A stretch of 37,428 nucleotides of DNA, taken from positions 1 through 37,428 of IMG/VR virus record IMGVR_UViG_2651869749_000010. The stretch is one strand, 5' to 3'. This DNA is from a virus. Its lineage: Duplodnaviria > Heunggongvirae > Uroviricota > Caudoviricetes. Below are positions 8,329-37,428 of this stretch, piece after piece. The notes beneath the pieces are model-generated. The model was not told the origin of the DNA, made no database searches, and saw only the letters and a list, made by a program, of their open reading frames with translations. The translations under genes were made by a program, and so were the position numbers. How positions within the stretch are numbered: position 1 is the first letter of the stretch; every line of letters starts with the position of its first letter.

Positions 8329-8330
8329 GA

Positions 8331-8822
8331 ATGCAAATTTCACCGGTTACTCTTCGTGTTGCGAAGGCGTTTATATCCAGACATCACCGACACAATAAAC
8401 CCCCGGTGGGGCATAAATTCAGCATTGGTCTGAGAAATGATGCCGGAGAATTGATAGGTGTGGCGACAGCCGGTAGACCTGTTGCACGACATTTGGACGA
8501 TGGATTAACGCTTGAAGTAAATCGCACATGTACCACAGGAGAACGCAACGCTAACAGCGCACTTTATGGTGCTGTCTGGCGGGCAGCAAAGGCTATGGGT
8601 TATCAACGTTGTATTACGTACACCCAGGCAGATGAATCAGGAGCATCTCTCCGCGCAGCTGGTTTTGTTCGTGTGAAAGAGCTTCCTCCAAGAAAAAGCT
8701 GGGCGGAATCAAGCGTCGCCCTGCGGAGTAAACGCGATCCGGTCGGAAACGGTGGTGTTCCTCGTGTGCTCTGGGAAATCAGGAGAATGAGTACCACTGG
8801 CATTCGCATCAAAGGAGAGTGA
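8331..8822 (+). CDS. Hypothetical basic protein (163 aa), first gene of accessory operon; possible degenerate GNAT-like fold
   Basis: ATG 8331 with AGGAGAGTGA RBS/junction; segment ALYGAVWRAAKAMGYQRCITYTQADESGASLRAAGF is loosely reminiscent of acetyltransferase-fold proteins but lacks a clear G-x-G loop. Confidence 0.55.
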   Translation: MQISPVTLRVAKAFISRHHRHNKPPVGHKFSIGLRNDAGELIGVATAGRPVARHLDDGLTLEVNRTCTTGERNANSALYGAVWRAAKAMGYQRCITYTQADESGASLRAAGFVRVKELPPRKSWAESSVALRSKRDPVGNGGVPRVLWEIRRMSTTGIRIKGE

Positions 8823-13695: not shown

Positions 13696-13849
13696 TGCTC
13701 CCCCTGAGTAATTACAGGAAGATTACCCGCGCGCGAAACCGTTCTCCTTACCCCCCTGTTCTGGCCGTTTTCTTACAACAAAAGCCCTTTGTATCAGCCT
13801 GTTACGCTTTGCCATCATGACTGAAGAACCAGTCAGAGGGGCAAAAACT
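13696..13849. promoter_or_regulatory. Divergent late promoter region (P_P / P_O equivalent)
   Basis: Intergenic region between divergent terminase and scaffold operons; no motif confirmed. Confidence 0.3.
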
Positions 13850-18511: not shown

Positions 18512-18653
18512 CCCACCCACATGGGGAAACCTCGGAATATGGGGCGACCGCCTTCTGGATGCACTGGAAACCTGTAACGCGGATAAACGGGCCATTGCTG
18601 AACTGGATAAGAGAATAGCCGAACTGACACACCAGACGGGAGTAACACAATGA
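18342..18653 (+). CDS. o-spanin lipoprotein (LysC/Rz1-like), embedded in and overlapping the i-spanin gene
   Basis: Lipobox LLTGC after a short hydrophobic stretch, proline-rich mature part; alternative start ATG 18372. Confidence 0.6.
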   Translation: MNSYATILQKMNAPTLCLTLVLLTGCAGTQNAPGPAPSVRLIPQTLTMPVTPPPFPDPPTWGNLGIWGDRLLDALETCNADKRAIAELDKRIAELTHQTGVTQ

Positions 18654-20530
18654 CCAGTAAGAACTTTGCACTGATTACAGCCATGACACAGGCTGAACTG
18701 ACTCAAAAGGTGAATGAACATCTTGCGAAAGGGTGGCATCTTCAGGGGGAGACGCGGGTTGCCTACGAACCCGGCACCCCGTGGTATCTAATGCAGGCAA
18801 TGGTGGACGATGGCACTACAGACATCTCACCTGATTCCCCCCAGCACGGCAGCGTGCCGGAGTGGTATTACGTGGTGGTACTTGCTGGTCAATCCAATGC
18901 CATGTCATATGGTGATGGAATGCCGCTGCCGGATTCTTACGATGCGCCCCACCCACGCATTAAGCAACTGGCCCGTCGCAACACAGTGACTCCCGGTGGT
19001 AAAGCATGCGCATTTAACGACATCATTCCGGCAGACCACTGCCTGCATGATGTTCAGGATATGAGCGCACTGAATCATCCGAAGGCAGACCTGAGCAAAG
19101 GGCAGTACGGCTGTGTCGGCCAGGGCTTACATATTGCCAAAAAACTGCTCCCGTATATCCCGAATAACGCGGGGATCCTGCTGGTACCATGCTGTCGTGG
19201 TGGTTCGGCATTCACTCAGGGCGCGGAGGGAACATTCAGTACGACCACGGGGGCCAGCCAGGATTCGGCGCGCTGGGGTGTGGGTAAACCGTTATATCAG
19301 GACCTGATTGCGCGCACCAAAGCTGCATTACAGAAGAACCCGAAAAATGTGTTGCTGGCGGTGTGCTGGATGCAGGGCGAATTTGACATGAGCGCTGCCA
19401 CCTACGCACAGCAACCGGACCTGTTCACGGCCATGCTGAAGCAGTTCCGTACTGACCTTTCCGGATTTAACGCGCAGTGCCATGGCGGCAGTGCTGCAGT
19501 TGTACCGTGGATTTGTGGCGACACGACGTATTACTGGAAAAACACATACGGCACACAGTATGACTCCGTCTACGGCGCGTACAAAAACAGGGAGAGCGAC
19601 AACGTTTTCTTTGTGCCGTTCATGACCGACGGTAACGGCAACAACACGCCCACCAACTTACCGGCAGAAGACCCGGATATTGCTGATGCAGGTTATTACG
19701 GCGCGCAATCCCGTAGTAATGGTAATTGGGTATCGTCAAATCGTCCGACACATTTCAGTTCATGGGCGCGCAGGGGCATTATTTCGGATCGCCTGGCAAC
19801 CGCTATTCTGAACGCAGTTGGTCGAACCAGCGCCTTCATCAGCGGTACCGCACCGGAGATTAAACCCTCGCCCGGCGGCGACACTCCATCGGGGCCGTCT
19901 GATGGTGACACATCCGTTCGTACAGTCTCCCTGCTGCCGACAGCCGGAGAGGCTGCTGCGCAGGGCTGGACCATCACCGGCGGCAGTGTTGCGCTGGAAG
20001 ATGGTGTGTTTAAGGTTACCAAGCAGAGCAATAAAACCTGGTCCCTGATGCATCCGGTGGATGACGCAGTCTCCCTGCTGACACGGGGTGGCAGACTGAG
20101 CTGTAAGTTTCGACTGTCAGGCGCACTGACCAACAACCAGTTCGGTCTGGGAATTTATCTGTATACCGATGTAGCGTTACCTGACGTCGTGGCGATGACC
20201 GGGACTGGTAACCCGTTCCTGATGTCGTTCTTCACCCAGACCACAGACGGCAAACTGAATCTGATGCATCACAAGAAAGCCGGAAACACAAAGTTGGGCG
20301 AGTTCGGGAATTACAGTAACGACTGGCAGACGCTGGAGCTGGTGTTCACCGCCGGCAGTGCCACGGTTACTCCGAAACTGAATGGAGTGGCTGGCCCGGC
20401 ATTCCAGGTCATAAAAGACAGTCTGACACTGGGGCTGAATGCGCTGACGTTAACTGATATCACTAAAAATGCCGCGTACGGCGTCGATATCGGCAGCCTG
20501 GTGCTGGAAATCAATAATCCCGCAGCATAA
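18650..20530 (+). CDS. SGNH/SASA-family sialate O-acetylesterase-like protein (NanS-p-like) with N-terminal DUF1737-like domain
   Basis: 626-aa ORF; N-terminus KNFALITAMTQAELTQKVNEHLAKGWHLQGE; esterase signature VVVLAGQSNAMSYGDG (GQSN block, nt ~18886-18903); inserted between lysis genes and tail completion gene. Confidence 0.65.
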   Translation: MTSKNFALITAMTQAELTQKVNEHLAKGWHLQGETRVAYEPGTPWYLMQAMVDDGTTDISPDSPQHGSVPEWYYVVVLAGQSNAMSYGDGMPLPDSYDAPHPRIKQLARRNTVTPGGKACAFNDIIPADHCLHDVQDMSALNHPKADLSKGQYGCVGQGLHIAKKLLPYIPNNAGILLVPCCRGGSAFTQGAEGTFSTTTGASQDSARWGVGKPLYQDLIARTKAALQKNPKNVLLAVCWMQGEFDMSAATYAQQPDLFTAMLKQFRTDLSGFNAQCHGGSAAVVPWICGDTTYYWKNTYGTQYDSVYGAYKNRESDNVFFVPFMTDGNGNNTPTNLPAEDPDIADAGYYGAQSRSNGNWVSSNRPTHFSSWARRGIISDRLATAILNAVGRTSAFISGTAPEIKPSPGGDTPSGPSDGDTSVRTVSLLPTAGEAAAQGWTITGGSVALEDGVFKVTKQSNKTWSLMHPVDDAVSLLTRGGRLSCKFRLSGALTNNQFGLGIYLYTDVALPDVVAMTGTGNPFLMSFFTQTTDGKLNLMHHKKAGNTKLGEFGNYSNDWQTLELVFTAGSATVTPKLNGVAGPAFQVIKDSLTLGLNALTLTDITKNAAYGVDIGSLVLEINNPAA

Positions 20531-23474: not shown

Positions 23475-24075
23475 TTCGTTGTTACCACCATCAGCCAGCA
23501 ATTTCATGCGTTGTGCCGAAGCCGTCGGAACACGCATTACAGACATTCCGGTAGACCTCAACACGCTGTGGTCGCCGGACACCTGCCCGGTGCATCTGCT
23601 GCCTTATCTCGCCTGGGCGTTTTCCGTTGACCGCTGGGATCGCAACTGGCCGGAAGAGACAAAGCGACAGGTGATTCGTGATGCATGGCTGATACACCGA
23701 CACAAAGGGACCATCAGCGCACTGCGAAGAGCCGTGGAGCCTCTCGGCTACCTGATTGAAGTAAAGGAGTGGTGGCAACTCAACGAGGAGCCGGGAACAT
23801 TTCGCATTGTTGTCGGAGTACTTGATCAGGGCATCACCGATGAAATGTATCAGGAACTTGAGCGCCTTATTGCGGATGCAAAACCAGTAAGTCGCCATCT
23901 GACGGGGCTGGCGATCAGCCTGAGTGTGAACGGAAAGATTTTCGTTGGTACGGGATGCTATCACGGCGATGCCCTGACGGTTTATCCCTACACCCCGGAG
24001 TCCATTATTGTCGAAGGGGATTATTTCCCTGCCCCGGCCATTCATTTAATTGATAATCTGAGAGTAAACGCATGA
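23467..24075 (+). CDS. I: Baseplate/tail protein I
   Basis: Frame 23434..24075, ATG 23467 overlapping J stop. Confidence 0.75.
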   Translation: MSNSLLPPSASNFMRCAEAVGTRITDIPVDLNTLWSPDTCPVHLLPYLAWAFSVDRWDRNWPEETKRQVIRDAWLIHRHKGTISALRRAVEPLGYLIEVKEWWQLNEEPGTFRIVVGVLDQGITDEMYQELERLIADAKPVSRHLTGLAISLSVNGKIFVGTGCYHGDALTVYPYTPESIIVEGDYFPAPAIHLIDNLRVNA

Positions 24076-25628
24076 CAGTGAAATACTACGCCATTCTGAC
24101 TAATCAGGGCGCGGCACGACTGGCTAACGCGACGATGCTCGGCAGTAAGCTGAATCTGACGCGAATGGCCGTTGGTGATGCAAATGGTGTGTTACCAACA
24201 CCAGACCCTGCACAAACAAAACTGATTAACCAGAAACGCATTGCACCGCTGAATCTTCTGAGTGTTGACCCTAACAATCAGAGCCAGATTATTGCGGAGC
24301 AAATCATCCCTGAAAGCGAGGGTGGATTCTGGATCCGTGAGATTGGTCTTTATGATGATAAAGGTGTACTCATTGCGGTGGCAAACTGCCCGGAAACGTA
24401 CAAACCGCAGTTGCAGGAAGGCAGTGGACGCACCCAGACTATCCGCATGATTCTGGTTGTCACGAACACCGAAGCCATCACGCTGAAAATCGACCCGTCT
24501 GTGGTTCTGGCAACCCGCAAATATGTGGATGATAAAATCTCAAAGCACGAGCAGTCACGACGTCACCCGGACGCCTCGCTGACCGCAAAAGGCTTTGTTC
24601 AACTTAGCAGTGCCACGGACAGTCAATCAGAAACTGAGGCTGCCACGCCGAAGGCTGTGAAAATCGCGTATGATCTGGCCTGGGGAAAATACACAGCCCA
24701 GGATGCAACAACGACCCGTAAAGGGATCGTACAACTGAGCAGTGCCACCAACAGCACCTCTGAAACGCTGGCCGCCACACCAAAAGCCGTCAAGGCGGCA
24801 TACGACCTTGCAGCCGGCAAGGCCCCCGTCAGCCACACTCACCCATGGAGTCAGATAACGGGAGTGCCTGCTGCCTCGCTGACGGCAAAAGGCACCGTAC
24901 AACTGAGCAGTGCCATCAACAGCACGTCTGAAATACTGGCCGCCACACCGAAAGCGGTCAAGGATGCATACGATCTGGCAAACGGAAAACAACCGGCAGA
25001 TGCCACGCTCACTGCTCTGGCAGGACTTGCCACTGCAGCAGATCGGTTGCCTTATTTTACCGGAGCAGACCGCGCAGCGCTGGCAACCCTTACAGCTATT
25101 GGTCGCGCTATTATCGCTAAGGGCAGTATAAAAGATGTCCTCAATTACCTTGGTTTGGGGGAAGGCTCTGCATTGCCTGTTGGTGTACCGGTTCCATGGC
25201 CCACCGCCACACCGCCAGCAGGCTGGTTACAGTGCAACGGAGCTACGTTCACCAAAGAACAATATCCTGTTCTGGCCAGAGTCTACCCGACCCTCCGTCT
25301 TCCCGATTTACGCGGTGAGTTTATCCGTGGATGGGACGACGGGCGCAAGATTGACGAGGGGCGTAAGTTGCTTTCATGGCAGAAAGGTACACTGGTCGGC
25401 GGTCATGACGATAACGATTCTGCGCTTGATATCTCGTACATGAGTAACGGAAATAATATTGACTATGGCGGCGATAAGGTGTTTGCGGGGAATTACCGTA
25501 GCGATTATTTGTGGTACGCAATACTGGGTGGAACAAACAGTCGCGCAAAAGCCGAATTAAACGGAGCATTCTTTAACATAACCCGCCCCCGCAATATCGC
25601 GTTTAACTATATCGTGAGGGCGGCGTGA
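24072..25628 (+). CDS. H: Tail fibre protein H (constant N-terminal part plus currently joined variable C-terminal cassette)
   Basis: 518-aa ORF with three internal tandem repeats and C-terminal RPRNIAFNYIVRAA shared with two silent cassettes. Confidence 0.85.
   Translation: MTVKYYAILTNQGAARLANATMLGSKLNLTRMAVGDANGVLPTPDPAQTKLINQKRIAPLNLLSVDPNNQSQIIAEQIIPESEGGFWIREIGLYDDKGVLIAVANCPETYKPQLQEGSGRTQTIRMILVVTNTEAITLKIDPSVVLATRKYVDDKISKHEQSRRHPDASLTAKGFVQLSSATDSQSETEAATPKAVKIAYDLAWGKYTAQDATTTRKGIVQLSSATNSTSETLAATPKAVKAAYDLAAGKAPVSHTHPWSQITGVPAASLTAKGTVQLSSAINSTSEILAATPKAVKDAYDLANGKQPADATLTALAGLATAADRLPYFTGADRAALATLTAIGRAIIAKGSIKDVLNYLGLGEGSALPVGVPVPWPTATPPAGWLQCNGATFTKEQYPVLARVYPTLRLPDLRGEFIRGWDDGRKIDEGRKLLSWQKGTLVGGHDDNDSALDISYMSNGNNIDYGGDKVFAGNYRSDYLWYAILGGTNSRAKAELNGAFFNITRPRNIAFNYIVRAA
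24569..24990 (+). repeat. Three tandem ~40-aa coding repeats inside the tail fibre gene
   Basis: SLTAKG.VQLSSA..S.SE..AATPKAVK.AYDLA.GK repeated three times. Confidence 0.7.
25141..25168 (+). other. Invertase crossover site 1 (boundary of constant and variable tail-fibre segments)
   Basis: Homology with the two inverted cassettes begins exactly at TTGGTTTGGGGG (25150-25161). Confidence 0.55.
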
Positions 25629-25634
25629 TACCGT

Positions 25635-26249
25635 TCAACTGGCAAGTGCCAGTGGCGCTTCCGGCCAGCTGATTTCAGGTGCCGTGCTGATATCCAGTGC
25701 GTTCAGCTCGTCGATATAATCCAGCACGGCGTTCAGTTTTGCCGTTTCTTCTGGTGTCAGACTGCGACCAGCACGCAGTTTGAGGTTGATAAGATCGACG
25801 GACGCCATCGCCTGTTTCACCCGTTGCTGGCGTTGCTGTCTGGCAACCTCCAGTTCTGCGGCTCGCTGCCGTTCAGTATCGGTTACCCACGCCTCACCGT
25901 TCCAGGTATCCCATGGCGTGGCTGGCTGTTTTGTGGTGGTGTCCGCCGGGTAATCACCCGGTTGGGTAATCAGAACAGGGTTACCGTTCTCCGTGCTGTA
26001 TACCGTCTCGCCGCGGTGATCAGGCACATGCTCCCACCCGTTCAGCGTGGCAGTCCGGCAAACCACGTAACCCGAAATTGCCTCCGGCGGTGCATCGGCG
26101 CACGAATGTGCCGGAGTACCCACCCCAAGGGCGAGATACTCCACAGAGGATGAGGTGTATTCCCGGGTTTCCTCGTCATAGTGATATACAGTGATATCGC
26201 CCGCTACAGTGGCGATACCGTTTTCATCCAGAACTGCAGTGTTACTCAT
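25635..26249 (-). CDS. Tail fibre assembly chaperone (gpG/Tfa-like)
   Basis: 204-aa ORF immediately downstream (same strand) of silent fibre cassette; typical size and position. Confidence 0.75.
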   Translation of the reverse strand: MSNTAVLDENGIATVAGDITVYHYDEETREYTSSSVEYLALGVGTPAHSCADAPPEAISGYVVCRTATLNGWEHVPDHRGETVYSTENGNPVLITQPGDYPADTTTKQPATPWDTWNGEAWVTDTERQRAAELEVARQQRQQRVKQAMASVDLINLKLRAGRSLTPEETAKLNAVLDYIDELNALDISTAPEISWPEAPLALAS

Positions 26250-26761
26250 TAAACTGCCCTCACAATGTAATTAAGTGCAATGCTACGGGGTCTGACAGTG
26301 ATACCCTTCGCATACCCGCTTCTGATAGAGGTCAGAATAGTAGCCTGCATACCATTGTCTGACATTGCCACGACAGGATCGCTGAATGTTGTCCCGTCCG
26401 GCATTTTAAAGCTGCCCTCACGAAGGTCTGTAATGGAATCTTCATTGTTGAATCCCATGCCGACTATCCCCGAGGTTCCCGTAGTGTCCTGGTTATAATA
26501 ATCCAGCATTGCTGTTCTTAACAGCGTTGCCCCTTGTGCGGACAGCAACTTACGTCCTGTATCAACTTTGCGCCCGTCGTCCCATCCACGGATAAACTCA
26601 CCGCGTAAATCGGGAAGACGGAGGGTCGGGTAGGCTCTGGCCAGAACAGGATATTGTTCTTTTGTAAAGGCGCGCCCGTCGCACTTTAACCAGCCTTCTG
26701 GCGGTGTGGCGGTGGGCCACGGAACCGGTACACCAACAGGCAATGCAGAGCCTTCCCCCAA
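26249..26761 (-). CDS. Silent alternative tail-fibre C-terminal cassette 1 (promoterless; expressed only after inversion)
   Basis: Begins with GEGSALPVGVPVPWPTATPPEGW shared with H and ends NYIVRAV; inverted orientation. Confidence 0.7.
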   Translation of the reverse strand: MGEGSALPVGVPVPWPTATPPEGWLKCDGRAFTKEQYPVLARAYPTLRLPDLRGEFIRGWDDGRKVDTGRKLLSAQGATLLRTAMLDYYNQDTTGTSGIVGMGFNNEDSITDLREGSFKMPDGTTFSDPVVAMSDNGMQATILTSIRSGYAKGITVRPRSIALNYIVRAV

Positions 26762-26780
26762 ACCAACGTTTTTATGCCGC
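26750..26780 (-). other. Invertase crossover site 2
   Basis: CCCCCAAACCAACGTTTTTAT; AAACCAA-GTTTTT resembles hix/gix half-site consensus from memory. Confidence 0.5.
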
Positions 26781-27245
26781 CCTTACGATATAATTAAAGG
26801 CAATATTACGAGGACGGTTTTCATTAGCTGTTGGCACGACACGAGAGGCGTCGAATCCAAGGTCATCGGTTTTGTCTATAGTAGTTGTGTTATTCGGCAT
26901 TCTCGCTGATCGTGTTCCTGCATCGTAAAAAGCCCCTCTGATTGCATCAAAAGACATACCGATCCCGCCATCTGCGAATCCCTCAATATTTCTTATTGCA
27001 TCCCCCTGTGAAGATAATAATTGTCGCCCGGCATCCACACCACGTCCGTCATCCCAGCCACGAATAAATTCACCGCGTAAATCGGGAAGACGGAGGGTCG
27101 GGTAGGCTCTGGCCAGAACAGGATATTGTTCTTTTGTAAAGGCGCGCCCGTCGCACTTTAACCAGCCTTCTGGCGGTGTGGCGGTGGGCCACGGAACCGG
27201 TACACCAACAGGCAATGCAGAGCCTTCCCCCAAACCAACGTTTTC
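26772..27245 (-). CDS. Silent alternative tail-fibre C-terminal cassette 2
   Basis: Shares LGEGSALPVG...RGEFIRGWDDGR and C-terminal RPRNIAFNYIVRAA; ORF-track start upstream of the crossover site is artefactual. Confidence 0.65.
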   Translation of the reverse strand, partial: ENVGLGEGSALPVGVPVPWPTATPPEGWLKCDGRAFTKEQYPVLARAYPTLRLPDLRGEFIRGWDDGRGVDAGRQLLSSQGDAIRNIEGFADGGIGMSFDAIRGAFYDAGTRSARMPNNTTTIDKTDDLGFDASRVVPTANENRPRNIAFNYIVRAA

Positions 27246-27252
27246 GTTTTTA
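27222..27252 (-). other. Invertase crossover site 3
   Basis: CCCCCAAACCAACGTTTTCGTTTTTAT; ~173-bp near-identical direct repeat with site-2 region. Confidence 0.5.
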
Positions 27253-27304
27253 TCCCTACCTATACCAACTCTGTATTTTTCACGAAACAAAGAGGATGTT
27301 TTTT

Positions 27305-27904
27305 ATGCAAATTGGCTATATTCGTGTGTCAACAAACGACCAGAACACGGATTTACAACGCAATGCACTGAACTGCGCAGGATGTGAACTGATTTTTGAA
27401 GATAAAATCAGCGGAACGAAATCAACCAGACCGGGATTGAAAAAACTGCTCAGAACGCTATCAGAAGGAGATACGCTGGTTGTCTGGAAGCTGGACAGAC
27501 TGGGCAGAAGTATGAAACACCTGATCACGCTTATTGAGGAATTGCGGGAAAAAGGTGTTAATTTCCGTAGTCTGACGGACAGCATTGACACGTCAACACC
27601 CATGGGGCGTTTCTTTTTTCACGTCATGGGGGCTTTAGCCGAAATGGAACGTGAATTAATTGTAGAGCGTACACTGGCCGGGCTGGCAGCAGCACGCGCA
27701 CAAGGACGCATTGGCGGACGTCGCCCGAAGTTGACAAAAGAACAACACGAGCAAATAGCGAGGCTGATTAAAAACGGTCATGACAGGAAACAACTGGCGA
27801 TCATTTACGACATCGGCATATCGACGATTTATCGTTATCACCCTGTAGGCGATATACAGGCTGAAGAAACAACCAGACAGACTCAGGAAAATGAAAACCG
27901 CTAA
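27305..27904 (+). CDS. Serine DNA invertase (Hin/Gin/Cin/Pin family)
   Basis: MQIGYIRVSTNDQNTDLQRNAL...GDTLVVWKLDRLGRS...MGRFFFHVMGALAEMERELIVERT...GGRRPKL closely parallels recalled Hin; frame of 27176..27904, ATG 27305. Confidence 0.9.
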   Translation: MQIGYIRVSTNDQNTDLQRNALNCAGCELIFEDKISGTKSTRPGLKKLLRTLSEGDTLVVWKLDRLGRSMKHLITLIEELREKGVNFRSLTDSIDTSTPMGRFFFHVMGALAEMERELIVERTLAGLAAARAQGRIGGRRPKLTKEQHEQIARLIKNGHDRKQLAIIYDIGISTIYRYHPVGDIQAEETTRQTQENENR

Positions 27905-27915
27905 TCTGACCATTA

Positions 27916-27940
27916 GCGGTTTTGCGTTAATCAAAACAGC
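27916..27940. terminator. Hairpin between convergent invertase and tail gene U
   Basis: GCGGTTTTG-cgttaat-CAAAACAGC imperfect inverted repeat; no clear T-run. Confidence 0.3.
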
Positions 27941-28425
27941 CCTTTAACGGAGCTGGCCGCGCTGTTAAGAGATGATGTCACTTTATCTTTGAAGCCGGAC
28001 AGCATATCGCTGAACGATGAGGATTGCAGGCGCTCCCGCAAATCCTCATCACAGCGTTCAAGAGTCAGTGAAAATTCTATCTTTTTCGCCTTACCATAGC
28101 GATCAAACTCGGAACGGGTCGTATTCGTTTCAGTCAGTACATACATGCCGTAAATCTGCCCGACACCATCAATCAGAGGCCAGGGGCGTCCTGTATATGC
28201 CTGCGTGGTCAGCAACGAAAGCGACACTTCGCCACCTGTAATTTCAGGATAAAGCACGCCGGAAAGCACAATGCGATCATCACCTGCGCCGATATACTGC
28301 CAGCCTGCTGAACGGTTAACGCGTTCATTTTTCACATGCCGCCAGCTTTTGTTTTGCTGTAACTGCTGATGCGGCAGCGTGCGCAGCTCAAAAACAAACA
28401 TGCCGTAGATCATCATCATGGCCAT
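27931..28425 (-). CDS. U: Tail protein U (P2 gpU-like)
   Basis: MMMIYGMFVFELRT...VLSGVLYPEITGG parallels recalled P2 gpU. Confidence 0.8.
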   Translation of the reverse strand: MAMMMIYGMFVFELRTLPHQQLQQNKSWRHVKNERVNRSAGWQYIGAGDDRIVLSGVLYPEITGGEVSLSLLTTQAYTGRPWPLIDGVGQIYGMYVLTETNTTRSEFDRYGKAKKIEFSLTLERCDEDLRERLQSSSFSDMLSGFKDKVTSSLNSAASSVKGLF

Positions 28426-28431
28426 GACTCC

Positions 28432-31248
28432 TCAATCTTTATCGTAAAAACTGCCACGCCCGGCACGGGCGCGCCGTTCCATTTCTGCCCTAACCATTTC
28501 ACCGACCAGTTTCGCCAGTTCGCGGGGATTCTGTGTAACAATGTTATGCAGATGAACATGAATTTCACCGCCAAATCCGGAGGCAACAGGCTCCCGGTTA
28601 CGGGAAGTTGCAGGAGCTGATGCCACTGGCGATCGTATGGCCTCCGCCACCGGGCGGGAGCTGGCCGCAACAACAGGGACCAGCGCCGGAGGCAGCGGAG
28701 CCGGAACCACGGGTGTGATATTAATTGCGGGGGCAGGCTTACTGACCTGCGCAATCTTCCGCTCCTGCCACTCCCCACGAACAGCAAGTGCGCGGGGCAG
28801 GTTCTTAAAGACAATATCGCCGGGGCCAATGCGTTTTTTCGTCTCATCAACCAGCTTACCTGTGTTATCAGCAATTTTGCTGAGTCTGCGCAGCGTCCCG
28901 GTATTGCTGTCTGTGAGCGGTTTGTTGTCTTTGGGTTTATCACCTCCGGTGCCATTGCCATTTTCCACAGGCTTCGGCGGATTGATTTTCGCCAGGTCCC
29001 CCTGAAGTAAGGCAACCTTGTCCTGAAGAATGGCCGCACGCTGTGCGTCTTCGATTTTCTTGCGCGCCCTTTCCGCTTCATCCGGAAGGACGCCAAGTTT
29101 TTCAAGTATCCACGCCAGCGTATCCAGTAGCATTTTTGCAGGTGTCAGAACAAGTTGTAACGCACCGCCAAGAACGTTACCGAATATCTCGCCAGCACTG
29201 GTACATTTATCCAGCGTTTCCTTGCTGGACTCCATCGGTGACAACAGCGATTTAAACCAGTTAAACACCTGGCTGATCCCGCTTCCGATTGCGTCAAAAA
29301 CAGGACCAAACCGTTCAAAGGTTTCGCGCAACGGGGTCAGCCTTTCCATAATCCCGCTGAACACCCCGGCAAAAAATGCCCTGATGGGATCCCAGTATTT
29401 CCAGATGAGAACGGCAGCTCCGGCAAGCGCAGCCACGATAAGACCGACCGGACTGAACAACGCCCCGATAGCGCCCCCCAGTAACGAAACGGAACCCGTC
29501 ACCATTCCCCATAGTGCTGGCAGGAGTCTGACAGCATTCATTGAACCGGTCAGGAGGGAAAAGCCAAGACGCAGTTTTGCCAGCGGGCCAGCAAGCACAC
29601 CAATAGCCAGCGACAACGAGCCAACCGTTGCAGTCATTGCCAGCAACGCACCGCCTGCTATCAGTAGCTGGCGCGTCAGTACCGGATGGGCCTGCGCCAG
29701 CGAGGTGATTTTTTCAAGCACCCGCGTGAGCCACTGCGTGACAGAACGCAGCGGACCGTCAACCAGATCACTGATGCGAATACGAAGACCTTCCCATGCG
29801 CTGTCGAGATTTTTCAGGTCCCCATCAAGATTATCGGCCATTACTTTTGCGACGCGATCGGCCTCTCCCCTTGCCCCCTGCAATTCTCTGGTCAGTTTTT
29901 GCAGCTCTCCTGAACCAGCCGCAGCAACAAGCGTCTGCAAACCAACGAACGCCTCTTCTCCGGCGATGTCCTTGAAGAAGGAAACCTGGTCCACCTGTCC
30001 GTATTTTTGTGTCGCCTTATAGAGATCAAGCAGCACATCCTCCATCGGGCGCATTTTGCCTCTGGCGTCAGCAACTGACACCCCCAGCTCTTTCAGCGCA
30101 TCAGCCGCAGCTTTTGGCGGTGATGCAAGGCGGGACAGACTTGCGCGCATGGCCGTACCAGCATCGCTTCCACGAAGACCATTATTGGCAAGCATCCCGG
30201 CCATGGCCGCCGCTTCTTCAAGACTGATACCAAGTTTTGCGGCAACCGGACCGGTATACTTCATGGTTTCGCCCAGCGCGCGTAAATCAGTATTGGTCCG
30301 GGTGAATGCCGCTGTCAGCGTATCGCCAACCCGGTCCATTTGATCGGCTGTCAGGTTGAACTGTGTGAGGATATTGGAGCCTATATCCGCCGTCTCGCCG
30401 AGTTCGACGCCACCTGCCAGCGCCATATTAAGAACACCGGGCAATGCGGCCTGAATGGCCTGCGGAGTAAAACCAGCCATTGCCAGAAAGCTCTGCCCAC
30501 TGGCGGCATCACTCGCAGTAAACTGTGTTTCAGAGCCAAGTTTTAACGCCTGCTCACGCAGCGCCTTAAACTGCGGGCTGTTTTTGTCGATTCGCGTCAG
30601 TGCCTGAACGCGGGACATCTCTTTGCCGAACCCGATCGCAGGCTGCAAAAAACGCCCGGCAGCATAGCCGCCCGCCGCTGCCGCACCAATTGCCAGCGCA
30701 CCACCTGTTTTCAGTTTTCCCGCGGTTTCCTGCGCGCGCGAATACCGCTCACGCGCCCGCGTTACACGCGCAAGCGCCTGCCGTTCGCGTTCAAGCTGGT
30801 TGTTGTACTGTTCGGTGCGTCTGATGGCCTGCTGGATGGTGTTATCGCTGCCTGTCAGGGAAATGCCGTGGCGTTTCAGCTCTCCGCCAAGCTCCCGCAT
30901 TTTCTGAATTTCCCGTGTGCGCGATTCATTCAGGCGTTCAAGCCGGGTGCTTAACTGCTGCATCAGCTTTTGTTGTTTTTCGCTGAGCACTGTACCCGTG
31001 CGTTGTAACTGATTAAGGGCGTTAAGCTGGCGTCGTGCTTTCACGATACCCGCATCCGCTTTACTGACAGCGTCGCGGGCGCGCTCAAATGATCGCGCCT
31101 GACGCTCGAGATTTTTGATCGCCCCCTGCGTTCGCTGGATGGAGTCACCAAACTGCCCCATCAGGCGGCGGGCGTTTTCGGCAGGCCGGGTCAGCCTGTC
31201 AACGGCGCTGAAAGCGACCCGGATATCAAGAGTCTTCATTGTCTGCAT
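28432..31248 (-). CDS. T: Tail tape measure protein (P2 gpT-like)
   Basis: 938-aa ORF, coiled-coil-rich N-terminus, Gly/Ala-rich hydrophobic central segments; position. Confidence 0.85.
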   Translation of the reverse strand: MQTMKTLDIRVAFSAVDRLTRPAENARRLMGQFGDSIQRTQGAIKNLERQARSFERARDAVSKADAGIVKARRQLNALNQLQRTGTVLSEKQQKLMQQLSTRLERLNESRTREIQKMRELGGELKRHGISLTGSDNTIQQAIRRTEQYNNQLERERQALARVTRARERYSRAQETAGKLKTGGALAIGAAAAGGYAAGRFLQPAIGFGKEMSRVQALTRIDKNSPQFKALREQALKLGSETQFTASDAASGQSFLAMAGFTPQAIQAALPGVLNMALAGGVELGETADIGSNILTQFNLTADQMDRVGDTLTAAFTRTNTDLRALGETMKYTGPVAAKLGISLEEAAAMAGMLANNGLRGSDAGTAMRASLSRLASPPKAAADALKELGVSVADARGKMRPMEDVLLDLYKATQKYGQVDQVSFFKDIAGEEAFVGLQTLVAAAGSGELQKLTRELQGARGEADRVAKVMADNLDGDLKNLDSAWEGLRIRISDLVDGPLRSVTQWLTRVLEKITSLAQAHPVLTRQLLIAGGALLAMTATVGSLSLAIGVLAGPLAKLRLGFSLLTGSMNAVRLLPALWGMVTGSVSLLGGAIGALFSPVGLIVAALAGAAVLIWKYWDPIRAFFAGVFSGIMERLTPLRETFERFGPVFDAIGSGISQVFNWFKSLLSPMESSKETLDKCTSAGEIFGNVLGGALQLVLTPAKMLLDTLAWILEKLGVLPDEAERARKKIEDAQRAAILQDKVALLQGDLAKINPPKPVENGNGTGGDKPKDNKPLTDSNTGTLRRLSKIADNTGKLVDETKKRIGPGDIVFKNLPRALAVRGEWQERKIAQVSKPAPAINITPVVPAPLPPALVPVVAASSRPVAEAIRSPVASAPATSRNREPVASGFGGEIHVHLHNIVTQNPRELAKLVGEMVRAEMERRARAGRGSFYDKD

Positions 31249-31494
31249 TCCCGCTGCGAAGTGCCGCCCGCTCGCGCCAGCTAACCACTTCGCCGGGCGT
31301 CATCATGAAGATTTCGGCGGGCGACCAGTTAAAAATGGCGGCAATATCCGCCACCAGATCTTCGATGTGCTCAAAGCACACCAGGGTGATTACGCTGCCG
31401 TCTCCTGCACGCTCTTCGCGCCAGAGTCTGGCTCGCTCATAAAATTTACAGCCACAGCGCACAACCGAATAAAATCGCGTGACGACATTTTTTT
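31226..31494 (-). other. E' extension reached by programmed -1 frameshift; slippery A7 run at 31488-31494
   Basis: Minus-strand codons ATT AAA AAA ATG at the run; -1 frame stays open from the run to stop at 31226, by manual codon walk. Confidence 0.5.
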
Positions 31495-31764
31495 AATCAT
31501 CACTTCATCCAGTCGTGGCGAGGTCACGCGAGGCAACAGCGTGAACATGGTATCCGCTTTCAGATTCAGCACATCAGACAGCGACAGACCACGCAGGGAT
31601 CCCGCCTGCTCAATAGCCCCGGTGATCTCCACATATGTGATTTTTTCGCCACCACGCTCAATTGGCCGGGAAAGTTTTACACCACGTTCGACAGCCATAT
31701 CCTCACCTGCCGTCACATCATCCGCTACGGTGTTATTCCGGGTTTCAGTATCGATATCTTTCAT
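31390..31764 (-). CDS. E: Tail assembly chaperone E (zero-frame product)
   Basis: 124-aa ORF upstream of tape measure gene; overlapping -1 frame ORF downstream. Confidence 0.7.
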   Translation of the reverse strand: MKDIDTETRNNTVADDVTAGEDMAVERGVKLSRPIERGGEKITYVEITGAIEQAGSLRGLSLSDVLNLKADTMFTLLPRVTSPRLDEVMIKKMSSRDFIRLCAVAVNFMSEPDSGAKSVQETAA

Positions 31765-31819
31765 CAGTTGTCTCCTTTTCAGTCAGAGGCGACGCACTGC
31801 GCCGCCTGCATATTACTTA

Positions 31820-32332
31820 TCAGCCAAGCCCAAGCGCGGAACGAATGCGGTCAGGCACAATGTCCTTGCCGTCCTTCCGGTAGATGTGGTTCAACAGGTC
31901 GATTTCCAACAGCGGGCGATCGTTAACGCTCAGCTTGTAGTAGGTGTTTTTGACAGCGTAAGTGTGTGATGTGGCTTCGCCCTGTTTGGCCTCCCCCATA
32001 TCAATTTCCGTCACACGCCCGCGCATCTCGATTTCATACAGATCGCTTTCTGCATCGGTGTAGTATTCACCCGCAAAACGCAGCAGCGTGCCGTCAATCG
32101 TGCCGCCATATTTAAGGAACAGCGCACGAACAGCTCCCCCCATAACAAAACTCGCATCAAGCGCGGAGTCGTCCAGACCGAGATCAATACTTACCGCCCC
32201 CATCATGCCACCACCACGATAGCTGTCGGTTTTGCGCGTCAGTTTGGGCGGCGTGACGGACGTCACCTTACCCACTTCGTTTTCACCATCCACAAACAGC
32301 GTAAAAAAGCGAAGATGTTTTGGTACAGCCAT
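31820..32332 (-). CDS. Tail tube protein (P2 gpFII-like)
   Basis: 170-aa ORF directly downstream of the sheath gene; size and position. Confidence 0.8.
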   Translation of the reverse strand: MAVPKHLRFFTLFVDGENEVGKVTSVTPPKLTRKTDSYRGGGMMGAVSIDLGLDDSALDASFVMGGAVRALFLKYGGTIDGTLLRFAGEYYTDAESDLYEIEMRGRVTEIDMGEAKQGEATSHTYAVKNTYYKLSVNDRPLLEIDLLNHIYRKDGKDIVPDRIRSALGLG

Positions 32333-33516
32333 CAGGCACCTCCCAGCACCGCAAATGCGGGACCAAAGAATTCATCAGTAAACGACTGGTAAAGCTCCAT
32401 GTCTTCCAGCGGGGGAACAGGCGTATATTTGTAGCGAATACGCACGCGCCCCTGACGTAAATTCGTGGTGCCGTTATCCACCACGTCATACCAGCACGAC
32501 GCCCCAATCAGTTTCCCGGCAGTAACCAGTGAATCCAGTTTTGCCCTGATGGCACTGATAACATCTTTCACGTTCGCAGGCGTCAGTGGACTGTCGATGG
32601 TTTCAAACTGCGCTTCCGCAATTGAATCAGCCAGCACCTGTGCGGTTCGGGTATACACCTCAAAGATGTAGGCGTTCGTTTCCGGTGTGCGGTTGCCCCA
32701 GAAGCGGAACCCGTTGCGACGAATAATGGTCGTGATTTCTTTGTTGTTGAGGCTATTGGCATCGCTGTCTTCGGCCTGCAACGACCAGAACACATGCCTG
32801 GACATCCCCAGCACATTTTTAACCGGAACGTTGGACAGTGATTTGTGCCATCCCTGCTCATGGTCAATGTACGCACGAAGGCCGCACGCATAGGCAGGCG
32901 CGGGGAACGTTTCGTTTTTGCCACTTTTCGGGTTGTAGGCGATGAAGTCCGGCCATAAGAGCATCACCTCACGTTCGTTGAATTTCTGGCGGTAGGTAAT
33001 CGCCTCAGCCATCGTGTTACAGCCGTGACATGAGGCATACACAAACGCGCGCAGTTTACCCGCAATCACGCACAGGGATTTTGTCACCGCCTCCGTGTCC
33101 AGCTCCGGCGCGGCCAGAATACGCGGACGGTATCCGATGCTTTCATCCTGCTCTGCAACAAGCAGCGCATACATCCCCGTATAGCTGCCGTCAGATTCAG
33201 AACCACCGATAACCAGTTGATCCTGCGTCTTTCCGTCTTCTTCTTTGTGTTCAGCCACGCGAACGACGATCACCTTTGTGCTCACCTGGTCTGCGATGGC
33301 CTTAAGCGCACGATAAAGCGTCCCCGTTGTCCCGCATTTTCCCAGCACGTCATTGACGCGGGTCAGCAGTGTGGGCTTGTTCAGCGGGAACAGCTTCGCG
33401 TCCGCATCATCCGCCGTTGCCACGATACCGATAACGCTGGAATCAACATCGTTAATCGCTGTTACCAGGTCGGTATTTTCCGTAACACGGGCACCATGAA
33501 AACGAGTTTCACTCAT
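32332..33516 (-). CDS. Tail sheath protein (P2 gpFI-like)
   Basis: 394-aa ORF; size and position; first gene of the tail operon. Confidence 0.85.
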   Translation of the reverse strand: MSETRFHGARVTENTDLVTAINDVDSSVIGIVATADDADAKLFPLNKPTLLTRVNDVLGKCGTTGTLYRALKAIADQVSTKVIVVRVAEHKEEDGKTQDQLVIGGSESDGSYTGMYALLVAEQDESIGYRPRILAAPELDTEAVTKSLCVIAGKLRAFVYASCHGCNTMAEAITYRQKFNEREVMLLWPDFIAYNPKSGKNETFPAPAYACGLRAYIDHEQGWHKSLSNVPVKNVLGMSRHVFWSLQAEDSDANSLNNKEITTIIRRNGFRFWGNRTPETNAYIFEVYTRTAQVLADSIAEAQFETIDSPLTPANVKDVISAIRAKLDSLVTAGKLIGASCWYDVVDNGTTNLRQGRVRIRYKYTPVPPLEDMELYQSFTDEFFGPAFAVLGGA

Positions 33517-33673
33517 AGCTTTAGCCCCTTGTATCCGTTAAATGATTCGGCAACAATCATCACCCACCACGCGCGTAATCTCACCCCTGTGCCGTTCTCC
33601 CGATCCGGCGACAACAAAAAGCAGTAACCCCCTCCGCACGCACATGCGACCATGCCGCACAGGGAGGGAACAG

Positions 33674-34783
33674 ATGACCGATACCACCATGCAATTGCTC
33701 AGTCAGGGCACAGACCCCGTGAAAATGCCGGATTTTGATATTCTCGCGGAGGGTAAAACGCTGTCAGGCGTGGCAGAGCGCCTGATGAGCCTGTCACTGA
33801 CCGACAACCGGGGATTTGACGCGGACCAGCTCACCATCACGCTGGATGATGCGGATTGTCAGTTGCAGCTACCGCCACGGGGCGCGCGCCTGACGGTTCT
33901 CATTGGCTGGAAAGGAGAACCGCTGACAGAAAAAGGCACTTACATTGTTGATGAAATCGCTCACGAAGGACCGCCGGACAGGCTGACTGTTTCAGCCAGA
34001 AGCGCAGATTTTCGGGATGAATTTAACGTTAAACGTGAGGTGTCCTGGCATGATGTGACCGTTGAGCGTGTGGTATCCGCCATCGCTCATCGGTATGGTC
34101 TGAAACCGCAAATCAGCGAAATGCTGATGGATATCGAAATCGACCACGCCGACCAGACCGAAGAAAGCGACATGTCCTTCCTTACGCGCATGGCGGAAAT
34201 GCTGGGCGCAATCACCACGGTAAAAAGCGGTAATCTGTTATTCATTATGCCAGGCGGTGGCGTGAACGCACAGGGCCAGCCGTTGCCATCGTTCGCCATC
34301 ACGCGCAGCAGTGGCGATCGCCATCAGTTCCGCATTGCTGACCGCGAAGCGTATACGGGGGTACGCGCTTACTGGCTTGATCTTAATTACGGGAAAAAGA
34401 AAAAAGTCAGCGTGAAACACCGCAAACCGCCAAAACCCAAAAAGGAGAAAAGCAGCAGCCGTGAAGGTGATTATATGGAAGGCGCGGAAGGCAATGTGTT
34501 TGTGTTACGCAAGACTTATCAGAACGAGCAGGCAGCAAGACGCGCAGCGGCGGCAAAGTGGCAGCAGCTACAACGCGGAGCCGCATCATTCTCCATCACG
34601 CTGGCATGTGGTCGTGCAGAACTCTACCCCGAAATGCATGGCACGGTAACAGGATTTAAAAGCGAGATTGATAATCAGGACTGGATTATTGCAAAAGCCG
34701 AGCACACCATCGATAACAGCGGCTTTACCACGCAGCTTGAGCTTGAGGCAAAAATCTCGGAATGGATAGCAGAAACAGAGTGA
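33674..34783 (+). CDS. D: Tail protein D (phage late control D family)
   Basis: Frame 33542..34783, ATG 33674 with GGAGGGAA RBS; size and position immediately before ogr. Confidence 0.75.
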   Translation: MTDTTMQLLSQGTDPVKMPDFDILAEGKTLSGVAERLMSLSLTDNRGFDADQLTITLDDADCQLQLPPRGARLTVLIGWKGEPLTEKGTYIVDEIAHEGPPDRLTVSARSADFRDEFNVKREVSWHDVTVERVVSAIAHRYGLKPQISEMLMDIEIDHADQTEESDMSFLTRMAEMLGAITTVKSGNLLFIMPGGGVNAQGQPLPSFAITRSSGDRHQFRIADREAYTGVRAYWLDLNYGKKKKVSVKHRKPPKPKKEKSSSREGDYMEGAEGNVFVLRKTYQNEQAARRAAAAKWQQLQRGAASFSITLACGRAELYPEMHGTVTGFKSEIDNQDWIIAKAEHTIDNSGFTTQLELEAKISEWIAETE

Positions 34784-34825
34784 GCAACTTAGAATAGCAG
34801 CAGCACCACGTTAAGGGAGGTCGCT

Positions 34826-35086
34826 ATGTTCCGTTGTCCGCTTTGTGGCGCATCTGCCCGTATCCGCACCAGTCGTCCGGAAAATGATTCAAACACCGTG
34901 CGGCAAAAGTATTACCAGTGTAACAACCTGGAATGCGGCGTATGCTTCTCAACACTGGAAGCTTTCCATAAATTCACATCAAAACACACCTCCGGCGTTC
35001 ACTCTTCAGAAGGTATCCCGTGGCATGAGCTGCCAGCTTCACACAGGGGAAACAATCAGATGAGTTTGCCTTTACCTCAGAATTAA
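34826..35086 (+). CDS. ogr: Ogr/Delta-type zinc-finger late transcription activator
   Basis: MFRCPLCGASARIRTSR...YYQCNNLECGVCF parallels P2 Ogr MFHCPLC...RTSR...YHQCQNVNC. Confidence 0.85.
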   Translation: MFRCPLCGASARIRTSRPENDSNTVRQKYYQCNNLECGVCFSTLEAFHKFTSKHTSGVHSSEGIPWHELPASHRGNNQMSLPLPQN

Positions 35087-35277
35087 CAGGCAGAATTGCC
35101 GGAGTAACAAAAAAGCGATAGATTACGCGCGGGTGCCTTTCGGCTGATGGTCGGAGGGAATACCCGAAGGCCAGATGTGGAAAGGCCCCGGAAAACATTT
35201 CTGTTTAACCGAGGCCCTAACATATCTACCTTAAGCAAGTGATAGGTTAGCGCCTCTCCAACAAAGGAGCAAGCGCT

Positions 35278-35418: not shown

Positions 35419-35506
35419 GGAAACCGCGACGGGGGAGCAATCCCCCGTCAATCGGTTGCTAAGGTTGGCTGAAGTGGCACCCTATCTCACAGACATGAAC
35501 AACAAA

Positions 35507-35538
35507 CCCGCAGCGTAAGAACTGCGGGTTTTCTTTTT
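35507..35538 (+). terminator. Rho-independent terminator downstream of the hok-like gene
   Basis: CCCGCAG-cgtaagaa-CTGCGGG followed by TTTTCTTTTT. Confidence 0.6.
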
Positions 35539-36879: not shown

Positions 36880-37428
36880 TCACTGATCAAGCAAATCTGC
36901 ACGCGCAGCGCTCAAATATTGCAACATTGACCACAGAGTCAGTACCGCAGCCACAAAGAAAAGTGCAATACCGGCGTACTCAACCCAAATGTTCGGACGC
37001 CACAGCAGCCAGGCTAACGCCACCATCTGGGCAGTGGTTTTCACTTTCCCAATCCAGGAGACAGCCACGCTACTGCGTTTACCCAACTCCGCCATCCATT
37101 CGCGTAGCGCAGAAATAATAATTTCACGGGCGATCATCGTTGCTGCCGGTAAGGTCACCCACCAGCTGTGGTAATGCTCGGTTACCAGCACCATGGCGAT
37201 AGCCACGAGAACTTTATCTGCGACAGGGTCAAGGAAAGCACCAAACCGGGTACTCTGATTCCAGCGGCGTGCCAGAAAACCATCGAACCAGTCAGTCACC
37301 GCCGCGACGCAGAAAATGAGCGCGGCGGCAAACGGCGACCAGGTGACAGGCAGATAAAAGACCAATACAAAGAATGGGATAAGGATGACACGGAACAGTG
37401 TAAGCAACGTAGGGATATTAAATTGCAT
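36880..37428 (-). CDS. pgsA: CDP-diacylglycerol--glycerol-3-phosphate 3-phosphatidyltransferase
   Basis: 182-aa ORF matching recalled E. coli PgsA over its full length; conserved synteny with the glyW-cysT-leuZ tRNA operon. Confidence 0.9.

Follow-up and report, generated by a model that had tools for sequence, protein, structure and literature searches.

The inverted tail sheath-to-gpU gene block of P88-like phages and a predicted two-way late promoter between FI and D

The DNA analysed here (the window) comprises the 37,428 nucleotides of the IMG/VR virus record IMGVR_UViG_2651869749_000010, and the genes of its contractile tail are divided between the two strands. Gene identities were established by Pfam domain assignment and by amino acid identity to phages P88 and P2, and the genes at the locus, together with a terminator-like hairpin, are as follows (percentages are amino acid identities):

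27305–27904, plus strand, serine DNA invertase of the Hin/Gin type (PF00239 Resolvase, 2.4e-51, and PF02796 HTH_7)
27894–27923, minus strand, predicted terminator hairpin from a scan for terminator-like structures (12-bp stem followed by a T-rich tail, 8 nt past the U stop codon)
27931–28425, minus strand, gpU tail protein (PF06995, 7.7e-39; 99% to P88; 46% to P2 over residues 3–129)
28432–31248, minus strand, gpT tape measure protein (PF10145, 1.6e-56; 94% to P88; 33% to P2)
31226–31462, minus strand, E′ reading frame with the GpE motif (PF06528, 2.1e-12; −1 frame relative to E)
31390–31764, minus strand, gpE tail assembly chaperone (PF10109, 7.4e-05, slightly under the Pfam cutoff; 73% to P88; 35% to P2 E)
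31820–32332, minus strand, gpFII tail tube protein (PF04985, 6.9e-46; 96% to P88)
32332–33516, minus strand, gpFI tail sheath protein (PF04984, PF22671 and PF17482; 98% to P88; 45% to P2)
33674–34783, plus strand, gpD, baseplate hub / late control D protein (PF05954, 8.7e-18; 96% to P88; 48% to P2 from residue 19 on)
34826–35086, plus strand, Ogr/Delta-type zinc-finger late activator (PF04606, 5e-14; 98% to the P88 locus)

U, T, E/E′, FII and FI thus occupy the minus strand from 27931 to 33516, and D and ogr the plus strand from 33674 to 35086. FI and D diverge across a 157-bp spacer (33517–33673), and U converges on the invertase gene with the two stop codons 26 bp apart (27905–27930); the hairpin between these convergent genes is the predicted terminator of an FI–U operon. 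An earlier note on this DNA had described the same strands, the FI/D divergence (across about 150 bp) and the convergence of U on the invertase, and for every gene that it named (FI to U, D, ogr and the invertase) Pfam agrees with its assignment. By Pfam and homology to P2 the P2-type contractile tail module is complete, with sheath, tube, E/E′ chaperone pair, tape measure, gpU, gpD and an Ogr/Delta activator. Frame arithmetic makes the A7 run at 31488–31494 a candidate slippery site for E/E′, and by analogy with the P2 annotation of E and E+E′ a frameshift is predicted there. The activator has the motif CX2CX24CX4C, with a loop two residues longer than in the CX2CX22CX4C of P2 Ogr, which is also the C4 zinc-finger motif of the Ogr/Delta activators (PMC3931495); its PF04606 match is above the cutoff.

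In P2 the genes FI-FII-E-T-U-D-ogr lie on one strand, and the seven genes of the F operon (FI, FII, E, E′, T, U and D, promoter PF) are co-directional, with the U stop codon overlapping the D start codon. The genes of this operon have one-to-one homologs in the window at 33–48% amino acid identity, and both phages have E′ in the −1 frame, an Ogr-type activator gene downstream of D, and a site of the TGT-N12-ACA type about 55 nt upstream of FI. In the window, however, the FI-to-U block has the reverse orientation and D diverges from FI, so that the P2-style co-directional FI-to-D operon is absent. The slot between the tail-fibre genes and the block carries variable cargo, namely fun and Z in P2 and the invertase gene in the window.

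By its protein sequences the window is a P88-like prophage (Peduoviridae, probably Xuanwuvirus), since its structural proteins are 94–99% identical to those of P88 but only 33–60% identical to those of P2. The 94–99% amino acid identity to P88 is found in 17 structural and replication proteins, and the nucleotide identity to P88 and its relatives is 92–95% over 91% of a 9-kb query (the ICTV genus level is about 70% similarity genome-wide). The 9-kb stretch is colinear in one piece with P88, P884B11, 500465-2 and Citrobacter phage phiSM, which share with the window the invertase gene, then U-T-E′-E-FII-FI on the opposite strand, then D and ogr; in the annotated P88 and phiSM records the strands agree, and the order in the window is that of Xuanwuvirus (a tail-fibre region followed by U-T-E-FII-FI genes on the other strand and after these by D and ogr). 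The FI–D spacer is also of equal length in the Xuanwuvirus relatives and the window. The window differs from P88 in its integrase and immunity end (the integrase is only 39% identical), in its tail-fibre tip region, which has three cassettes and one tfa gene, in an additional 626-aa esterase-like gene, and in a truncated parM. The orientation of the one tfa, which points away from H, and the truncation of parM are the chief features that bear on the viability of this prophage, and neither concerns the inverted block.

The distribution of this gene order is wide. Of the 1379 complete Escherichia coli genomes that carry the FI/D junction, 1356 have it in one contiguous piece, and at least 80% of the region 27300–35100 is colinear in 1107 complete E. 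coli genomes, whereas a search with a synthetic canonical U-to-D junction gave no match in any of 1386. About one in four complete E. coli genomes, among them those of ST131 and O104:H4 strains, carries a P88-type prophage, and all of these prophages have the inverted order. A survey of more distant relatives covered the best-scoring 80 of 422 loci, from which rare exceptions could have escaped; within these 80, U, T, FII and FI are on the minus strand and D and ogr on the plus strand in all loci with a D of 60% or greater identity to that of the window (57 loci in about 25 genera of Enterobacterales), and the order is canonical in every locus with a P2-clade D. Senquatrovirus SEN4 and the Klebsiella Reipivirus ST16-OXA48phi5.4 share the inverted FI–U block, the divergent D and the D clade with the window, although their D proteins are only 62–70% identical to its own, their slots contain no invertase gene, and their hosts and cargo differ. 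On this comparative evidence the inverted FI–U block is the normal, fixed architecture of a large clade of P2-related Enterobacterales phages, with at least Xuanwuvirus, Senquatrovirus and Reipivirus among its members.

That the order stems from a contig joined or oriented wrongly, for which there is no specific support, is extremely improbable, because both junctions recur in hundreds of complete assemblies made independently of one another and in phage genomes that were sequenced separately. The earlier note took the order as an inversion of about 5.6 kb that would detach D from the tail promoter and might impair the prophage, and we consider a recent event of this kind, with D left without a promoter and the prophage defective or weakened, highly improbable. 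The order is indeed unlike that of P2 and the spacer contains no consensus sigma-70 promoter, but the same order is present in the 1356 E. coli genomes and the 57 surveyed loci above, the inverted loci are monophyletic (below), promoter-like elements are conserved on the D side of the spacer (below), and isolated phages, including the plaque-forming P88, have the identical arrangement. P88 has a burst size of about 65, and electron microscopy shows its tail to be contractile (PMC5285337), phiSM has been reported to be fully functional (PMC6456863), and SEN4 has this order as well. That note had itself named related functional phages with this arrangement as the finding that would speak against its reading; synteny comparison shows that such phages exist, and damage to the prophage by the inversion is therefore refuted. 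What survives of the proposed inversion is that the block is inverted relative to P2, most parsimoniously by a single event; the clade-wide order shows that it is not a rearrangement of this prophage. The phiSM virions were called non-contractile by transmission electron microscopy (PMC6456863), which fits poorly with the presence of a sheath gene in phiSM and makes this phage a slightly weaker functional example.

The inverted loci form one clade in trees of D, of FI and of U (simple neighbor-joining trees, made without support values), and the order is canonical in P2 and in outgroups from Burkholderia, Pseudomonas and Aeromonas, which points to a single old and fixed inversion from the canonical order as the most parsimonious history of the FI–U block. 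Short inverted repeats at the two endpoints, which the earlier note proposed as a further check, do not exceed chance: the longest repeat shared by the endpoints is 9 nt, a length reached in 8 of 200 shuffles, and it is not among the top repeat pairs.

A programmed, reversible switch, in which the Hin/Gin-type invertase would flip the 5.6-kb FI–U block, has in its favor that the invertase gene (27305–27904) abuts the block, that invertases do flip adjacent segments, and that a tail-fibre inversion region is present nearby. In the Mu G, P1 C and Salmonella Hin segments a serine invertase gene likewise lies beside the inverted DNA. The FI–U block, however, lacks terminal crossover sites, which sets it apart from these segments, and it occurs in nature in a single orientation. 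Its endpoints show neither an inverted repeat above chance nor a match to the invertase-proximal site motif (total matches to which are within chance), the opposite orientation was found in 0 of 1386 E. coli genomes, and most members of the clade have the same orientation with no invertase gene in the slot. These observations leave a switch with very little probability. A genuine invertible tail-fibre-tip segment lies to the left of the invertase gene, at 25147–27290, and it is to this tail-fibre inversion region that the invertase, which is 87% identical to that of P88, belongs, and not to the FI–U block.

P2 late promoters are Ogr-dependent and have the consensus TGT-N12-ACA (PMC3931495). 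A search of the FI–D spacer for this exact pattern found no site, because the window has TCT in place of TGT as the left half-site, and it was comparative alignment that revealed the site. The predicted promoter elements of the spacer, and a second activator-type site elsewhere in the window, are the following:

33556–33561, minus strand, predicted −10 hexamer (GATGAT) of the FI (PF) late promoter, with the start predicted near 33549
33596–33613, no strand assigned, single Ogr-type activator site, TCT-N12-ACA (mostly TGT-N12-ACA in relatives), centred at 33604.5, about 55 nt from both predicted starts
33648–33653, plus strand, predicted −10 hexamer (GACCAT, after TGn) of the D promoter, with the start predicted near 33660
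13760–13777, no strand assigned, second activator-type site, TCT-N12-ACAACAAAA, between the divergent terminase P and scaffold O genes

In an alignment of 26 diverged spacers, conservation is limited to the FI start codon, an A/T pattern resembling a −10, the TGT-N12-ACA site, and a CGCGCG block with a second −10-like hexamer just downstream of it on the D side. Columns A53, T54 and T57 of the FI-side −10 are invariant in the 26 sequences, and site columns T93, T95, A108, C109, A110 and A111 are invariant or nearly so across about 25 genera. On the FI side the distance from the end of an nAnnAT hexamer to the edge of the activator site is exactly 40 nt in 39 of 39 loci; on the D side the corresponding distance, for an nAnnnT hexamer, is 40 nt in 34 of these loci and 41 nt in the remaining 5, and there is no comparable hexamer peak at other offsets. 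The predicted D start lies just upstream of a GGGAGGG ribosome-binding site and the D ATG codon at 33674. The D-side hexamers (GACCAT, GATCCT) are weak as −10 sequences. A sigma-70 consensus scan found no promoter in the spacer, as would be expected of activator-dependent promoters, and its total matches were no more numerous than in shuffled sequence. The sequence features of an Ogr-type late promoter are present: a one-mismatch dyad about 55 nt upstream of the predicted start (a distance that depends on placing the start from the −10), a −10-like hexamer at a fixed distance, and no consensus −35. Another TGT...ACA-like element at 33530–33556 (read as TGT-N20-ACA) was set aside; its conservation is confined to the closest relatives, and it shares positions with the −10 region and leader of FI.

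The layout has a precedent in P2, where a single dyad-symmetric Ogr site lies between the divergent late operons of PP and PO, with mapped starts 47 nt from each of its edges. From the end of the P2 PO −10 hexamer to the edge of the site there are 40 nt, and the FI and D hexamers of the window are at the same distance on their two sides. When the whole window was searched with a two-sided model of site plus hexamers, only the P/O and FI/D spacers matched (shuffle mean 0.47); in the P/O spacer of the window the O-side hexamer is 41 nt from the site edge. In P2 the shared-site layout is known only for P/O, whereas in the window it is predicted for FI/D too.

These comparisons suggest a scheme in which the inverted segment took along its late promoter and, upstream of that, the dyad-symmetric Ogr-type site, and the inversion would thereby have placed the activator site beside D, with D on the opposite face of the same site. 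The single site at 33596–33613 would then serve two divergent activator-dependent late promoters: a leftward one transcribing FI through U and stopping at the 27894–27923 hairpin, and a rightward one transcribing D and probably continuing into ogr. Because one site would be shared by both promoters, all of the tail genes would still be under Ogr control. Transcription starts, Ogr binding and bidirectional activation are all predicted here from sequence. That an ancient inversion converted the one-way PF into a two-way late promoter, with one Ogr-type dyad and −10 hexamers 40 nt to each side driving FI–U and D (with ogr), seems to us reasonably probable. A literature search turned up no paper that describes this inversion or a divergent promoter between FI and D. 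The conserved Ogr-type site and the D-side −10-like hexamer speak against the claim that D has been detached from the tail promoter.

A different account of the same spacer accepts that the order is ancient and fixed and places D on an independent promoter, constitutive or dependent on another factor, with the D-side conserved block serving something else. In its favor, the D-side hexamers are poor −10s whose register is less fixed than that of the FI side, and the conserved CGCGCG block has no assigned function. On the other hand, the spacer has a single conserved TGT-N12-ACA site, its D-side hexamer stands at the 40 nt that matches the mapped P2 PO/PP geometry, the symmetric arrangement is seen again in the P/O spacer of the window itself, and D is a late structural gene needed together with FI–U. 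We regard an independent D promoter as unlikely on balance. Taken as a whole, the explanation by an ancient and fixed P88-clade order, in which the block moved with its promoter and activator site and FI–U and D came under two-way Ogr control, is in our judgment very probable.

These observations serve mainly as a correction: a gene order unlike that of P2 is no sign that a prophage is damaged, and viability or annotation calls keyed to the P2 order would wrongly flag P88-type prophages as rearranged. The predicted shared FI/D late promoter would explain the co-regulation of D with the other tail genes and, if true, would be a clean natural case of a palindromic activator site that allows an operon to be split by inversion while its co-regulation is kept.

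The tail genes of this region, identified from an ORF map and Pfam, are arranged as follows:

27305-27904, plus strand, serine DNA invertase (26 bp between its end and the U stop codon)
27931-28425, minus strand, gpU
28432-31248, minus strand, tape measure T
31226-31462, minus strand, GpE' frame
31390-31764, minus strand, chaperone E
31820-32332, minus strand, tube FII
32332-33516, minus strand, sheath FI
33517-33673, FI-D divergent spacer, 157 bp
33674-34783, plus strand, gpD
34826-35086, plus strand, Ogr/Delta zinc-finger protein

P2, as annotated, carries FI, FII, E, E', T, U, D and ogr on a single strand, with the U stop and D start overlapping; since FI through U run opposite to D and ogr in the window, this block is inverted relative to P2, where an earlier note had placed the inversion, with FI and D diverging from the spacer and U converging on the invertase. 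The window has the standard gene set of a P2-type tail module but not its synteny, and its gene order matches that of P88 and Xuanwuvirus exactly. Its Ogr homologue has the pattern CX2CX24CX4C, compared with CX2CX22CX4C in P2.

By protein comparison the window is a P88-like prophage: 17 structural and replication proteins share 94-99% identity with those of Escherichia phage P88 (Xuanwuvirus, Peduoviridae) and only 31-60% with those of P2. FI through U (33-46% identical to P2) are as diverged from P2 as D (48%) and the head genes (38-47%), so the block was not recently imported from elsewhere. The integrase (1-1002, minus strand) is only 39% identical to that of P88, compared with 94-99% for the structural genes, and on sequence the integration/immunity module is swapped relative to P88.

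A 9-kb query over both block junctions gave a single colinear alignment (92-95% identity) to each of P88, Xuanwuvirus P884B11, Escherichia phage 500465-2 and Citrobacter phage phiSM, and deposited annotations of P88-type phages give the same strands as the window. P88 is induced by mitomycin C, forms plaques with a burst size of about 65 and has a 137-nm tail by EM that reportedly "could shrink" (PMC5285337), and phiSM is temperate, spontaneously released and described as fully functional (PMC6456863). Working phages thus share this arrangement, and the suggestion in the earlier note of a damaged or individually rearranged prophage is not borne out. The phiSM virions were described from TEM as long, non-contractile and Siphoviridae (PMC6456863), which disagrees with the P88-type sheath, tube and gpD encoded by the deposited genome.

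Of the 1379 complete E. coli genomes that carry the FI-D junction (33117-34073), 1356 have it contiguous, and 27300-35100 is at least 80% colinear in 1107 E. coli genomes, including ST131 JJ1886 and EC958 and O104:H4 C227-11. As an opposite-orientation control, a synthetic "canonical" (P2-order) junction, made by fusing the 3' end of U to the 5' end of D, was found in none of the 1386 E. coli genomes holding both halves; the block does not flip, and a P2-ordered variant of the lineage is absent from this collection. We also surveyed one genome per species by D-alignment scan and classified the best-scoring 80 of 422 loci by tblastn. Among these 80, D was at least 60% identical to the window's in 57, all of which (57/57) have U, T, FII and FI on the minus strand and D and ogr on the plus strand, and P2-clade D loci (47-53% identity) are canonical without exception. 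Hosts of inverted loci include Salmonella, Serratia, Symbiopectobacterium, Edwardsiella, Erwinia, Enterobacter, Pantoea, Pectobacterium, Brenneria, Kosakonia, Klebsiella, Xenorhabdus, Photorhabdus, Providencia, Morganella, Yersinia, Hafnia, Rouxiella and others. Salmonella phage SEN4 (Senquatrovirus) and Klebsiella phage ST16-OXA48phi5.4 (Reipivirus) have the inverted order as well. One Firmicute-labelled contig (NZ_JBQPOM010000071.1, 'Vagococcus sp. WN89Y') holds a P88-type prophage with tail proteins 94-98% identical to the window's, and this assembly is probably contaminated or mislabelled.

The co-directional order is found in P2, Burkholderia phage Mana, Pseudomonas phage Dobby and Aeromonas phage LPM4, and in Burkholderia KS5 (table in PMC3091744), and is therefore ancestral. 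In simple neighbor-joining trees built for D, FI and U, with the Pseudomonas phage as root, inverted loci form a single clade, within which the only members not labelled inverted are two short contigs that lack U but have FI on the minus and D on the plus strand. The proposal that the orientation arose by inversion is supported, and from these trees and outgroups the most parsimonious history is one old event, fixed before the clade radiated. Alignment of U and D to P2 fails only over ~35 C-terminal residues of U and 18 N-terminal residues of D. These weak traces would be compatible with breakpoints at the U/D boundary, although variability is common at protein termini and the breakpoint evidence is not strong.

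Control of the FI-U block by the neighboring invertase was rejected, as neither of two defining features tested was found. The search for inverted repeats at the endpoints, raised in the earlier note, gave none linking them (longest exact match 9 nt, reached by 8 of 200 shuffles), the endpoint pair is not among the window's top repeat pairs, and the crossover motif of the invertase-proximal site has no match at either block end. Most clade members have the same block orientation and no invertase in this slot, which corresponds to the fun(Z) position of P2 and in relatives holds HxsB/C, DUF3800, YecA or a hydrolase, among others. A hairpin at the left endpoint (27894-27923, 12-bp stem and T-rich tail, 8 nt past the U stop) is likely the terminator of the FI-U transcript.

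Together with H (24072-25628) and the invertase, the tail-fibre tip region (25147-27290) resembles a multi-cassette inversion system: ~230 nt within H (25147-25375) are repeated inverted at 26541-26769 (90%) and 27006-27241 (84%), and two minus-strand Collar-domain ORFs (26249-26761 and 26772-27290) could serve as alternative tips of H. The single tail-fibre assembly gene (25635-26249) faces away from H in the present orientation, whereas P88 has one on each strand.

In an alignment of FI-D spacers from 26 diverged loci four features are kept where nearly all else has drifted: the start codon of FI; A-T-n-n-T at 33556-33560, a -10 hexamer (nAnnAT) when read on the minus strand; T-n-T, 12 nt, A-C-A-A at 33596-33614; and, on the D side, a CGCGCG block with a second -10-like hexamer after it. 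The sequence of the third is that of the TGT-N12-ACA dyad found at the Ogr-dependent late promoters of P2 (PMC3931495); its left half-site in the window is TCT rather than TGT, which is why an exact search for TGT-N12-ACA missed it. When 39 distinct spacers were anchored on the dyad without gaps, the FI-side hexamer ended exactly 40 nt from the site edge in 39/39 (A2, A5 and T6 invariant), and the D-side hexamers, which are weak, ended 40 nt from the other edge in 34/39 and 41 nt in 5/39, with no comparable peak elsewhere among offsets of 30 to 51 nt. The same geometry is present in P2, where the divergent P and O operons have annotated, experimentally derived starts 47 nt from each edge of one shared site (labelled "activator binding site; pO, pP promoters" in the P2 record) and the PO -10 ends 40 nt from the site edge. 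A two-sided scan of the whole window for site plus hexamer found two places only (shuffle mean 0.47), 33596 (FI/D) and 13760, the latter TCT-N12-ACAACAAAA within the window's own divergent P/O spacer. No consensus sigma-70 promoter was found by scan in the FI-D spacer, as expected of activator-dependent promoters. Starts are predicted near 33549 (FI, minus strand) and 33660 (D, plus strand).

The ancestral inversion would have carried PF and its upstream dyad site to a position beside D; because the dyad is symmetric, D would then have needed merely a -10 element at the right distance for activation by the same bound protein. On these alignments we consider it fairly probable that the inversion moved PF and the dyad next to D and that the protein bound there activates D as well. 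The idea that D is cut off from the tail promoter is thus not supported on sequence, given the predicted shared site with its D-side hexamer at 40 nt in most loci.

A 43-aa plus-strand ORF (33496-33627), listed as a hypothetical protein for P88 (SF19_gp50) and in PGAP annotations of E. coli genomes, overlaps both the start of FI and all of the predicted promoter region; given the indels in other genera, it probably is an artefact of annotation. A direct repeat, GATYCGGCRACAA, at 33544-33556 and 33602-33614 (11/13 identical, 58 bp apart) is present in the closest relatives only; the copy at 33602-33614 makes up the activator site's right half and that at 33544-33556 overlaps the leader and predicted -10 of FI, and the repeat's chance probability is borderline (about 0.1 by rough estimate).

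Elsewhere, a 626-aa ORF (18650-20530, plus strand; DUF1737, SASA sialate O-acetylesterase domain, DUF6645), which resembles the NanS-p esterases of Stx prophages, appears to form part of the late operon, with only 23 bp between it and the following gene, where P88 has merely a short gap between the lysis genes and tail gene R. At 7927-8822 (plus strand) the ParM homologue comprises only the N-terminal 133 aa, compared with about 320 aa in P88, the following ORF has a weak, sub-threshold Mom-family match (7e-5), and the partition module appears to have been disrupted or replaced. Downstream of ogr, as in P88, lies a hok/gef-family toxin gene (PF01848; 35278-35412, plus strand), with hairpins nearby (35427-35450, and a bidirectional terminator-like one at 35504-35531 close to what is probably the prophage's right end). 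The CDP-alcohol phosphatidyltransferase gene at 36880-37428 appears to belong to the flanking host DNA.

The observation of the inverted block was correct, and its reading as a lesion possibly compromising the prophage is not supported: the arrangement is normal for a phage lineage that is functional and very common. As a fact it is already known, being visible in many published, ICTV-classified genomes, and our literature searches found no paper discussing the FI-U inversion or the FI/D promoter. The only mildly new part is the predicted shared bidirectional FI/D late promoter, which is directly testable.
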